Shown: piece by piece, positions 23,375-27,500 of the stretch
Numbering within the stretch: the first letter of the stretch is position 1
Layout: every line of letters starts with the position of its first letter
Made by a program: the position numbers and the translations under genes
Source: Escherichia coli
GTDB lineage: Bacteria > Pseudomonadota > Gammaproteobacteria > Enterobacterales > Enterobacteriaceae
Length of the DNA: 64,000 bases
Direction: 5' to 3' (one strand)
Assembly (NCBI RefSeq): GCF_013315695.1
Contig: NZ_CP054353.1
The notes under the pieces: model-generated
The model's database searches: none
What the model was told of the DNA's origin: nothing
What the model saw: only the letters and a program-made list of their open reading frames with translations

Positions 23375-23548
23375 CGGCAAATTGCAACGTGTAGTTTCAA
23401 TCGCTGAAAAATCAGGCAAATGAACAATTTTGGAAAACCGCTCGCATTCAGTAGTTATTCATGTCACGGTTTCCTGTAAAGTGGTGTTATAAAATGAACT
23501 ACTAATAGACCCACATACATTCAGGGAATTGTTATGTTCAAGGAGAGG

Positions 23549-23893
23549 ATGACGCCAGATGAACTTGCCAGACTGACCGGCTATAGCCGCCAGACCATTA
23601 ATAAATGGGTACGCAAGGAAGGCTGGACAACGTCACCAAAACCAGGCGTCCAGGGTGGCAAAGCTCGACTGGTTCACGTCAATGAACAGGTTCGTGAATA
23701 TATTCGCAATGCTGAACGTCCAGAAGGTCAGGGAGAAGCGCCAGCCCTTTCTGGTGATGCGCCGCTTGAAGTGTTGCTGGTGACACTGGCGAAAGAGATG
23801 ACGCCAGTTGAACAAAAACAGTTTACATCCTTGCTTCTGCGGGAAGGGATTATCGGATTATTACAACGCTTAGGGATTCGCGATAGCAAATAA
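23549..23893 (+). CDS. yfeC: small HTH DNA-binding protein (YfeC), 114 aa
   Basis: ORF 23534-23893; chose ATG at 23549 with AAGGAGAGG upstream; N-terminal HTH-like segment (ELARLTGYSRQTINKWVRKEGW). Confidence 0.8.
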   Translation: MTPDELARLTGYSRQTINKWVRKEGWTTSPKPGVQGGKARLVHVNEQVREYIRNAERPEGQGEAPALSGDAPLEVLLVTLAKEMTPVEQKQFTSLLLREGIIGLLQRLGIRDSK

Positions 23894-23894
23894 T

Positions 23895-24287
23895 ATGAAA
23901 AGATTACGCAATAAAATGACCACCGAAGAACTGGCTGAATGCCTCGGTGTGGCTAAACAAACTGTTAACCGTTGGATCAGAGAAAAAGGCTGGAAAACGG
24001 AAAAATTTCCTGGCGTGAAAGGCGGTCGTGCCAGACTTATTCTGGTCGATACGCAAGTTTGCGATTTTATTCAGAACACGCCAGCCTTCCATAACACGCC
24101 GATGCTTCTGGAAGCCGAAGAACCCCTTGCCGAATACGCACCGGGGATTCGCACTCCTGCTTATCGGCAAATCATCAGCGCAATAGACAACATGACTCAC
24201 AGTGAGCAGGAAAAAGTTGCGCAATTTTTGTCACGCGAAGGAATTCGTAATTTCCTTGCTCGTCTCGACATAGATGAATCAGCTTGA
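23895..24287 (+). CDS. yfeD: small HTH DNA-binding protein, paralog of YfeC (YfeD), 130 aa
   Basis: Shares the motif EELA..LG..KQT.N.W.R.KGW.T...PGV.GG.ARL with yfeC; start is 1 bp after the yfeC stop. Confidence 0.8.
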   Translation: MKRLRNKMTTEELAECLGVAKQTVNRWIREKGWKTEKFPGVKGGRARLILVDTQVCDFIQNTPAFHNTPMLLEAEEPLAEYAPGIRTPAYRQIISAIDNMTHSEQEKVAQFLSREGIRNFLARLDIDESA

Positions 24288-24326
24288 CATCCTCCACGCC
24301 CTGAATGACGAGGATCCCTGCTACGT

Positions 24327-25535
24327 TCAGGCTGTCACCTGAATCATTTCGGTGGGTTCCTGCTTCAACGAGCGGCCTGACTGCACCATCTCTCCACAGG
24401 CAAGAACGGCGTGCCCCGCCGCTAAAATGTTACGAGCGCCATTTACATCAGCGTTCGCTGTATATCCACATGCCTGGCATCTGAATTTACTTTGTGACAG
24501 GCGATTTTCTTTCGCTGTATGACCACAGCACGCGCAACGCTGGCTTGTGTACGCTGGCGGAACAGCAAGCACCTGACCGCCACGCCAGAGCTGCTTGTAC
24601 TCAAGCTGGCGGCGCATTTCATACCAGCCCTGATCCAGTATCGAACGGTTTAAACCTGATTTTGCCCGGACATTGCGCCCCGGCTGGCTGACCGTACCCG
24701 CTGCTGACTTTGACATGTTGCTGACCTTCAAATCCTCAATGACTATCATTGCGTGGTTTTTGCTGACGGTCGTTGTGACTTTGTGAAGGTAGTCCCTGCG
24801 GATATTTGCGATACGGGAATGCAGTCGCTGTATTTTGCGTTTCTGCTTCTGCCAGTTATTGCTGAATTCGACCTTGCGGCTTAACTGTCGCTGAAGTCTC
24901 GCCAGCGTCTTCTGGTTTTTCTGAAAACTGTTTACAGGCTCAAAGACTGTGCCATCTGACAGCGTGGCGAGTTTAGCCACGCCAGCATCCAGCCCGACCA
25001 TTGATGCTGAAGGGTGAACCGGAGTGGATACTTCACTTTCTGTCTGAATACTGATGTACCACTTACCGCAGGACTGGCTGACAGTGACATTTTTCACAAC
25101 ACCCGTGACCTGACGGCTGTTCCGGTAGCGCATCCAGCCAAGTTTCGGCAGAAAAATACGGCTGTTTTCCTGATCGAGCTTAACGCCCTGCGGGTAGCGG
25201 AATGCATCATTCTGTCCCCGCTTTTTGAATCGGGGAAAAGCAGCCCGCTTCTGGAAGAAGTTTTTGTAAGCCCGCTCAAGGTCTTTCAGTGACTGTTGCA
25301 ATGGCTGTGAGGGCGAATCTTTAAGCCATTGCATTTCAGTGGCGTTTTTCCACTCAACCAGCCAGGAAGCCATTTTCCCGTAAGGGATGTATTTATTACC
25401 GGCCTCATGATTCTCATTCTGAAGCGCCAGAGCACGATTGAAAACGAAACGACATGCGCCTGCGAAGCGCCTCATTTCACACTCCTGTTGACCACCTGGT
25501 CTTAACTGGAATTTAAATGCCTGTAATCGTTTCAC
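24327..25535 (-). CDS. tnpB: TnpB (OrfB) RNA-guided endonuclease of IS200/IS605 family, 402 aa
   Basis: Conserved N-terminus ([10 protein letters not shown]...[13 protein letters not shown]), RuvC-I VGLDAGV, Ruv[12 protein letters not shown], zinc finger CACCGH...CQACGY, Ruv[17 protein letters not shown] start at 25535 has no SD, internal ATG at 25475 has strong AGGAG and would give 382 aa. Confidence 0.85.
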
Positions 25536-25542
25536 AGGTCAA

Positions 25543-26030
25543 ATGATACTTTGGTCTGTGAAAAAAGAAACCGATATCCGGCGTGGAAGGCATTGTGTTT
25601 TCCTGATGCATGTTCACCTGGTCTTTGTCCCAAATACCGACGCCAGATTTTTGACCATGACGCGACAGAAAAACTACGCACTTACTATTCAAATGTATGT
25701 GCTGATTTTGAAGCTGAACTGGTTGAAATGGATGGCGAACCAGATCACGTCCATTTGTTAATTAACTATCCTCCCAAACTGGCGATATCCAGTCTGGTAA
25801 ACAGCCTCAAAGGCGTATCGGGTAGGTGACTGCGACGAGATCGACCAGATATTGCAGTCAGGTATTACTACAAAGGCGTTTTGTGGAGTCCTGGCTATTT
25901 TGCCAGTAGCTGCGGAGGTGCGCCAATATCCGTCATCCGCCAATACATTGAACAACAGCAAACACCTGGTCAGGTGGAAAACCGCGCCTTATATCCCCGC
26001 CCTGAAGGACGGGGTTTTACGGCGCACCGG
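25543..26030 (+). pseudogene. tnpA: tnpA (IS200/IS605 Y1 HUH transposase), disrupted
   Basis: TnpA-like sequence is split: ...HCVFLMHVHLVFVP in one frame, KYRRQIF...DHVHLLINYPPK...SLKGVSGR in another (about 1-nt loss near 25628-25631), then an in-frame TGA at 25827-25829, then ...WSPGYFASSCGGAPISVIRQYIEQQ. Confidence 0.65.
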
Positions 26031-26040
26031 ATAAATAAAA

Positions 26041-26067
26041 AACGGCAGGGGTATCTCTCCTGCCGTT
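26041..26067. terminator. gltX rho-independent terminator (bidirectional hairpin)
   Basis: AACGGCAGG-loop-CCTGCCGTT 9-bp stem; on the minus strand followed by TTTTTTATTTAT, 18 bp after the gltX stop. Confidence 0.65.
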
Positions 26068-26084
26068 TATCTTTTATGCGCTAA

Positions 26085-27500
26085 TTACTGCTGATTTTCG
26101 CGTTCAGCAATAAAAGCCAGCGCTTTGTTGATACGCTCGATACTGCGGGTCTTACCGATTGCGTGAACGGTAACATCCAGCGCTGGAGACTGCCCCGCAC
26201 CGGTTACGGCGACACGCAGCGGCATACCAACTTTACCCATACCCACTTCCAGCTCATCCGCCGTCGCCTGAATAGCGTGATGAACGTTTTCAGCGGTCCA
26301 GTCAGTAATCGCAGTCAGTTTGTCACGAACCACTTCCAGCGGCTGACGCGCTACCGGACGCAGATGTTTTTTCGCGGCGTCGGCATCGAACTCAGCAAAA
26401 TCTTCGTAGAAATAACGGCAGCTCTGTGCCATCTCTTTCAGCGTCTTGCAGCGTTCGCCCAGCAGTTTCACCAGATCAGCCAGCTGCGGGCCGTTACGGG
26501 TATCGATATTTTCCTGCTCAATGTGCCACTGTAAGTGAGTAGCAACATACTCCGGCGGCAGCGCGTTAATGTAGTGATGGTTCAGCCACAGCAGCTTGTC
26601 GGTGTTGAACGCACTGGCAGATTTGCTGACGGCATTCAGAGTGAAGTATTTGATCATCTCTTCACGAGTGAAGATTTCCTGATCGCCGTGGGACCAGCCC
26701 AGACGCACCAGATAGTTCAGCAGTGCTTCTGGCAGATAACCATCATCACGATACTGCATTACGCTGACCGCCCCGTGACGTTTGGACAGTTTTTTACCGT
26801 CATCGCCGTTGATCATAGAAACGTGCGCGTAAACCGGTACCGGCGCTTTCAGGGCTTTAAGAATGTTGATCTGGCGCGGCGTGTTGTTGATATGGTCTTC
26901 GCCACGGATAACATGGGTGATTTCCATATCCCAGTCATCAACAACCACACAGAAGTTATAGGTTGGGGAACCATCGGTACGGCGAATGATCAGATCATCC
27001 AGCTCCTGGTTGCTGAACTCAATCGGGCCACGGATCTGATCGTCAAAAACAACAGAACCTTCCTGCGGGTTAGCAAAACGTACAACGCACGGTTCATCAT
27101 CAGCATGATGCTCATGGCTGTGGCGGCAGCGACCGTCATAACGCGGCTTCTCACCTTTCGCCATTTGCTCTTCGCGCAGCGCTTCCAGGCGCTCTTTAGA
27201 GCAATAGCATTTATAAGCTGTGCCCTCTTCCAGCATCTGATCGATCACCGCGTTGTAGCGATCAAAACGTTTGGTCTGGTAGTACGGACCTTCATCCCAC
27301 TCCAGGCTCAGCCAGTTCATGCCATCCATAATGGCTTCGATAGCTTCCGGCGTGGAACGCTCAAGATCGGTGTCTTCAATACGCAGCACGAACTCACCGC
27401 CGTGGTTACGTGCAAAAAGCCAGGAGTAAAGAGCAGTACGCGCGCCGCCAACGTGCAGATAGCCTGTTGGGCTTGGCGCGAAGCGAGTTTTGATTTTCAT
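26085..27500 (-). CDS. gltX: glutamate--tRNA ligase, 471 aa
   Basis: Class I aaRS with HVGG-type motif ([18 protein letters not shown]) and KLSKR (KMSKS-type) motif. Confidence 0.95.

Follow-up and report, generated by a model that had tools for sequence, protein, structure and literature searches.

An IS609 copy with a decayed transposase gene and an open tnpB gene between yfeD and gltX in Escherichia coli

The interval between yfeD and gltX on Escherichia coli contig NZ_CP054353.1 (RefSeq assembly GCF_013315695.1) holds a complete copy of the insertion sequence (IS) IS609, which we analysed within a stretch of 64,000 nucleotides, referred to here as the window, with positions counted from its first letter. 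As a whole, the locus is very probably explained by an old, single insertion of IS609 in which the transposase gene, tnpA, was later destroyed, and in which the nuclease gene, tnpB, and the predicted scaffold of its guide RNA were kept, the nuclease being latent. The element, the function of TnpB, the site and the protein are already known and annotated in RefSeq, O157:H7 strains included, and the significance of the locus beyond correct annotation is small. It provides a clean, resolved example of an IS605-family copy with a decayed transposase and an RNA-guided nuclease module that is still open. With its ends, its transposon-associated motif (TAM), its predicted guide and the empty-site target of sister strains defined, it forms a convenient native E. 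coli system for asking if transposase-less chromosomal TnpBs retain activity.

The IS609 copy and its insertion site

The IS609 copy spans positions 24284 to 26030 (1747 bp). Its top strand is the minus strand of the window, and it is ordered left end (LE), leftward tnpA, rightward tnpB and right end (RE). The ends were fixed by comparing the filled site of the window with empty sites in EcN, a K-12-like genome and MG1655, and with copies at other loci. Homology among IS609 copies at different loci breaks off exactly at 24284 and 26030. Excision of this segment in silico restores the empty site exactly, and the empty sites carry no scar, the junction of GCA, TAA and terminator being uninterrupted. 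A 200-nt junction probe gave the same picture across thousands of genomes, with IS-only matches beginning at 24283/24284 and yfeD-only matches ending at 24282/24283. On the plus strand, the empty site reads ...TCA GCA TAA ATAAAAAACGG..., and the filled site reads ...TCA GC/T TGA CATCC...(IS)...CACCGG/ATAAATAAAAAACGG, where the slashes mark the ends of the element. An initial annotation, made from the sequence alone, had placed an IS200/IS605-family block at 24288-26031 between yfeD and the gltX terminator and had proposed a comparison with other E. coli genomes; that comparison leaves the location as it was and shifts the boundaries slightly, by 4 nt on the yfeD side.

The left end lies directly 3' of the target and TAM, 5'-TTTAT, located on the minus strand at 26031..26035 within the T-tract of the gltX terminator, and no target-site duplication is present. 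The complementary ATAAA on the plus strand is retained beside LE at all IS609 sites compared. The flanks at independent insertion sites (at least eight) read TTTAT four times, GTTAT three times and ATTAT once, in addition to CTTAT, and from these variants the consensus target and TAM is TTAT. The same TTAT was taken as the assumed TAM in a published assay of an IS609-like TnpB.

Both ends contain subterminal imperfect hairpins, which are related and lie on the same strand. The LE hairpin, CCCCGTCC-TTCA-GGGCGGGG (25995..26014, minus strand), includes one T.G mismatch and folds as DNA at -17.3 kcal/mol (z -3.0); a search with its pattern returned one match, plus the RE counterpart. The RE hairpin is a variant, CCTCGTCA-TTCA-GGGCGTGG (24294..24313, minus strand), beyond which ...GGAGGATGTCAA forms the RE terminus, with its last base at 24284. 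This terminus is constant, and the sequence beyond it differs at every IS609 site. Hairpins instead of terminal inverted repeats, together with insertion 3' of a conserved tetra- or pentanucleotide without duplication, are traits of the IS200/IS605 family, and the family assignment made in the initial annotation is further borne out by a match to NF033573 (147 bits). The two mismatches that set the RE hairpin apart from the K-12 and ytfB-site copies (24311 and 24306) were first read as a lesion immobilising the element in cis. This reading was rejected because IS609 copies at the yeaQ/yeaR-side site of other genomes, which have another flank and TAM, share the hairpin variant; it is thus a subfamily variant, found at no fewer than two independent sites. 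An intact IS609 TnpA encoded elsewhere in the genome may mobilise the window copy in trans.

Of 5426 complete E. coli genomes, 4858 contain copies that match a 1748-bp query from end to end at 97.5-98.6% identity, and the K-12 insQ locus beside ydcO is one of these copies. The window copy is 97.9-98.1% identical to K-12 IS609 and to copies whose TnpA is named 'IS200/IS605-like element IS609 family transposase' in RefSeq; these copies serve as the proxy for the name IS609, in place of the ISfinder reference entry. From this sequence comparison, we are highly confident that block 24284-26030 is a full-length copy of IS609, a known element of the IS200/IS605 family.

Of the same 5426 genomes, 535 carry the element between yfeD and gltX, O157:H7 strains among them, and all others have an empty site. 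EcN and K-12 are among the empty genomes, and the spacer in MG1655 is only 51 bp, as anticipated in the initial annotation, which expected no insert there. The description of the block as strain-specific accessory DNA holds for the site, which is far from universally filled, and needs tempering for the element itself, which occurs somewhere in about 90% of complete E. coli genomes, K-12 (insQ) included. In the nearest genomes, RefSeq annotates this site with the same two genes, an RNA-guided endonuclease and a tnpA pseudogene. The nearest complete genome is that of MS 21-1, with 99.7% identity over a 4-kb query (23500-27500).

When the window is compared with O157 copies at the yfeD site, synonymous divergence (dS) amounts to 0.042 for tnpB, 0.035 for yfeD and 0.090 for gltX, and the yfeD alleles of filled genomes are nearer to each other than to that of EcN. 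Because the divergence of tnpB resembles that of its flanks and the yfeD alleles of filled genomes cluster, a single, old insertion, common to O157:H7 and the lineage of the window, is indicated. Between the window and MS 21-1, none of 2169 nt differ across yfeC, yfeD and gltX, and 13 differences are present, all in tnpB (24441-25369). They form three clusters with states matching IS609 paralogues (the ytfB-site and K-12 insQ copies), a pattern that looks like gene conversion between IS609 copies.

A decayed tnpA beside an open tnpB

The nuclease gene tnpB (25535..24327, minus strand) is intact and encodes 402 amino acids from a GTG start codon. All TnpB motifs quoted in the initial annotation are present: VGLDAGV at residues 180-186 (D183), IEDLKVSNM at residues 266-274 (E267), the CACC...CQAC zinc finger (C334, C337, C353 and C356) and the third RuvC motif at residues 361-370 (D363). 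In a phmmer search against solved structures, ISDra2 TnpB (8h1j/8bf8) was the leading match (residues 3-376, E ~1e-53), followed by Cas12f and other type V effectors. Alignment to ISDra2 TnpB, a check proposed in the initial annotation, places the catalytic residues D183/E267/D363 on D191/E278/D361 and aligns the zinc-finger cysteines likewise. The catalytic D/E/D residues are invariant in 20 distinct relatives. Pfam assigns the domains HTH_OrfB_IS605, OrfB_IS605 and Cas12f1-like TNB (PF07282, E 2.7e-24), and the NCBIfam model guided_TnpB scores 391 bits against a cut-off of 100, compared with 195 bits for the IS607_TnpB model. The exact protein is deposited at NCBI as WP_174183259.1/QKM92220.1, "RNA-guided endonuclease InsQ/TnpB family protein".

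The transposase gene tnpA (25543..25973, plus strand) is a pseudogene of a Y1/HUH transposase, divergent from tnpB, with its ATG at 25543 and the HVHLLI motif encoded at 25746-25763. Its lesions were called against the intact 143-amino-acid IS609 TnpA, WP_000604943.1. They comprise a 1-bp deletion after 25629, causing a -1 frameshift at about codon 30; a TTA to TGA change at 25827-25829 (codon 96); and the conversion of the canonical TAG stop to CAG at 25971-25973. The coding sequence is thereby split among three frames, in agreement with the decayed, divergent TnpA fragments described in the initial annotation. The repaired translation matches the NF033573 IS200/IS605 transposase model (147 bits, cut-off 55) and contains the HUH motif HVHLL and the C-terminal YIEQQ tyrosine region. 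RefSeq flags tnpA in the nearest genome as 'frameshifted; internal stop'. With tnpA destroyed, this IS609 copy cannot excise by itself.

The TGA codon is identical in the K-12 copy at the ydcO site, and both the frameshift and the TGA are missing from the O157 copy at the yfeD site; both lesions therefore arose, or came by conversion, after the insertion. Judging from the sequences, the TGA shared by the window and K-12 copies may be either recurrent or spread by conversion. The K-12 IS609 showed no transposition in mutation-accumulation lines, and its inactivity has been put down to the transposase stop codon. CAG in place of TAG is found in most sampled E. coli IS609 copies, where tnpA reads through LE into the flank and RefSeq applies the flag 'missing C-terminus'.

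The same element thus carries no disabling lesion in the 1209 bp of tnpB and three in the 432 bp of tnpA. All 30 full-length tnpB copies sampled, from IMG/VR relatives and E. coli chromosomes, are open. For relatives across the family, the ratio of nonsynonymous (dN) to synonymous divergence relative to the window copy is 0.07-0.08 at dS > 1; from these rates, the TnpB family is under strong purifying selection. Among the IMG/VR loci, many relatives on prophages or viruses have no tnpA, and their LE precedes tnpB by only ~84 nt. In a second IMG/VR group, similarity to the window ends immediately downstream of the RAGATH-18-like core described below, which suggests a swapped module proximal to RE and guide, and in one IMG/VR group RE ends in GTCAC, not GTCAA.

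The predicted guide RNA and competing explanations

The predicted omega-RNA (or reRNA, right-end element RNA) scaffold occupies 24284..24422 on the minus strand, with an uncertain 5' limit, and overlaps the 3' end of tnpB and RE. It comprises four main stem-loops. An alignment of 21 distinct relatives over the last 277 nt of the element gave six helices in the final ~140 nt, with 98.2% of cells paired. Compensatory changes were seen in five pairs, and 5 of 500 column shuffles yielded at least as many; the alignment is 96% identical on average, and we regard the comparative support for the structure as modest. One compensated A-U pair (alignment columns 170/190) is kept in the window and mismatched in the K-12 copy. 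A single-sequence RNA fold of the 3' region was no better than shuffles (z -1.3), so support for the scaffold structure comes from comparative analysis only. The scaffold includes a RAGATH-18-like core (CCUGUGGAG...CGUUGAAGCAGGAA; Rfam RF03064) at 24357..24400 on the minus strand. RAGATH-18 is the scaffold core of IS607 TnpB guide RNAs and is reported to co-occur only with IS607 TnpBs (PMC11061315); here, the motif lies within an IS605-type tnpB (Y1 TnpA), with an internal arm that is shortened.

By analogy with ISDra2 and ISGst elements, we infer that the guide consists of 16-20 nt read from the flank beyond RE. The predicted guide segment, 5'-GCUGAUUCAUCUAUGUCGAG (24264..24283, minus strand), is the DNA directly 3' of RE and is antisense to the last yfeD codons. 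The empty junction of EcN reads exactly as TTTAT plus this 20-mer, and the K-12-type empty junction has three mismatches. TTTAT plus the 20-mer is absent from the window, where the target is preceded by GTCAA, not by the TAM. As the RE sequence ...GTCAA sits in the TAM position, the nuclease has no substrate in this cell and is latent.

We postulate the following course of events. IS609 very probably integrated as single-stranded DNA through its Y1 transposase, directly 3' of TTTAT on the gltX-sense strand, at a point between the terminator and the last yfeD codon. The transposase gene decayed later in this lineage, whereas tnpB was preserved together with the predicted guide-RNA scaffold that overlaps it. 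Were it expressed, TnpB would convert the transcript of its own gene to an omega-RNA ending in ~16-20 nt of yfeD flank, and would then cut DNA bearing TTTAT+GCTGATTCATCTATGTCGAG, which is the empty yfeD-gltX junction. Such a junction would arise only by excision, or arrive from a strain without the element. TnpB and omega-RNA would thus act as a retention device, in which the donor joint left by excision is cut and recombination restores the element. With tnpA dead, no donor joint would form, and the nuclease, if active, would be idle. For this copy, omega-RNA biogenesis, guide length, cleavage and homing are all modelled on ISDra2 and ISGst.

The insertion also altered the local transcription layout. 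IS609 entered inside the last yfeD codon; the third base of that codon, a synonymous one, and the stop codon now come from RE, which converts the native GCA-TAA to GCT-TGA (stop at 24285..24287, plus strand). The YfeD protein is unaltered, and accession WP_000826499.1 is annotated at both filled O157 and empty EcN sites. The bidirectional intrinsic terminator of gltX and yfeD (26040..26068, plus strand), identified by a terminator scan as a 12-bp stem with a T-run, stands directly between the two stop codons in empty sites. It has been kept on the gltX side and is now 1.75 kb from yfeD, which is left without a terminator adjoining its stop; transcripts from yfeD should in consequence extend, in antisense, through the 3' end of tnpB and into the omega-RNA region. 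Readthrough from gltX would enter LE in the tnpB-sense direction. The divergent start codons, GTG of tnpB (25535, minus strand) and ATG of tnpA (25543, plus strand), are separated by 7 nt, so that each promoter must sit inside the opposite gene, and a 7-bp hairpin on the tnpB strand (25538..25520) spans the tnpB start codon. The yfeD gene (23895-24287) occurs in two deeply diverged allele classes. The K-12-like allele differs from those of the window, EcN and O157 at 40-42 of 393 nt (dS ~0.45, dN ~0.04), and the adjoining yfeC and gltX differ by only ~1.5-2% (dS 0.06-0.09) in the same comparison.

The strongest rival, which we consider possible but somewhat less probable than its negation, is that tnpB is a decaying relic, open merely for lack of time, with a protein that is inactive or unexpressed. 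Several observations weigh against a preserved nuclease and point this way. The dN/dS of tnpB among E. coli chromosomal copies is 0.15-0.45, and 0.31-0.45 among three yfeD-site copies, compared with less than 0.1 for yfeC, yfeD and gltX; this elevation fits either short-timescale inflation or relaxed constraint. Two private substitutions affect conserved positions: T68M, where 19 other distinct family proteins and ISDra2 have T, and K223E, a charge reversal where all others have K or R and ISDra2 has K. Published mutational scanning of ISDra2 TnpB disfavours negative charges near nucleic acid; a literature search for residue-level data on ISDra2 T68 and K234 found none. A simple promoter scan of the tnpB strand found no sigma-70-like promoter, and the transposase that would make the substrate is dead. 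A separate point against the overall explanation is that the RF03064 match, the sole Rfam match in the region, scores 29.5 bits (E 0.0085), under the gathering score of 44.9.

Against decay, every catalytic and zinc-binding residue is intact, the lesions are confined to tnpA despite its shorter length, and dN/dS, though raised, is clearly lower than 1. The predicted stems of the scaffold survive as well, including the compensatory A-U pair that is mismatched in the K-12 copy, and gene conversion with other IS609 copies can keep refreshing the reading frame. An IS609-like TnpB with 94% identity was purified and assayed with a TTAT TAM in published work, the main text of which reports no individual result, and our search of the literature on IS609/insQ with TnpB yielded no functional work on the E. 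coli protein itself. From the sequence, the chances that this tnpB copy is expressed or active are about even.

A more far-reaching proposal starts from an active, immobile TnpB and omega-RNA. As guide and TTTAT match the empty junction of related strains such as EcN perfectly, the filled allele would resist recombinational replacement, and the nuclease could act as an allele-specific 'drive' that cuts incoming empty alleles; RNA from the flank, either guide or readthrough and antisense to yfeD, may further alter expression of yfeD, now without its terminator. We regard this proposal as improbable. Host exaptation of TnpB and omega-RNA, as a TldR-like regulator, for control of yfeD by an antisense guide or as a guard of the locus, appears more improbable still. 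In its favour, a sizeable clade carries this copy as a fixed insertion, yfeD is no longer followed directly by a terminator, and both the guide and the readthrough RNA would run antisense to the 3' end of yfeD. However, the catalytic triad is intact and the protein full length, unlike in TldR, the guide is merely whatever flanks RE, as at every IS609 site and with no site-specific features, and a dead tnpA beside an open tnpB is also found at the ydcO, ytfB and yeaQ sites. Finally, an ancestral sequence deleted from K-12, EcN and most strains, which would account for the presence/absence polymorphism and nothing further, is effectively refuted by a block that is bounded precisely by IS609 LE and RE, abuts the TTAT target and matches copies at unrelated loci with 98% identity, and by empty sites that are scarless and make up ~90% of genomes.

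Comparison with known systems

The closest relative of the window copy that has been described is the K-12 IS609 (insQ/tnpB and the ynck/insP tnpA pseudogene, beside ydcO), which is the same element, with 98.1% identity over 1748 bp. The two share length, LE, RE terminus, TTTAT target, divergent layout and the TTA to TGA change in tnpA. Unlike the K-12 copy, the window copy occupies another chromosomal site and has an extra tnpA frameshift and the RE hairpin variant CCTCGTCA, compared with CCACGTCC in K-12. Their TnpB proteins differ at 12 residues, including the private T68M and K223E of the window.

ISDra2 TnpB of Deinococcus radiodurans (8h1j, 8bf8, 8exa) belongs to the same protein family and has the same domain order, D/E/D residues and four zinc cysteines, with a guide RNA encoded at the tnpB 3' end and RE, as is predicted for the window copy. 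In contrast, the alignment is far from identical, the TAM is TTGAT there and TTAT/TTTAT here, tnpA and tnpB are divergent here, and the allele described here is known from its sequence. The IS607 TnpB with a RAGATH-18-derived guide RNA (Ren et al. 2024) provides a consensus that the scaffold core of the window resembles at both ends of the motif. The internal segment is 44 nt in that consensus and 17 nt in the window, where the match is sub-threshold and the RNA overlaps the coding sequence; moreover, the window transposase is a Y1 HUH enzyme, whereas that of IS607 is a serine recombinase. TldR proteins are nuclease-dead and carry a guide aimed at a host promoter, whereas the TnpB described here keeps its triad and full length, and its guide is transposon flank.

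A system that informs the proposed retention function is ISGst2 TnpB2 of Geobacillus stearothermophilus, which was shown experimentally to cut the donor joint, with recombination restoring the element (Meers et al. 2023). Most ISGst2 copies are without a working tnpA and rely on TnpA in trans (Meers et al. 2023). Like the window copy, ISGst2 encodes an IS605-family TnpB with a TTTAT TAM. It differs in its host, in a distantly related protein and in its many copies per genome, compared with 1-9 IS609-matching places per E. coli genome.

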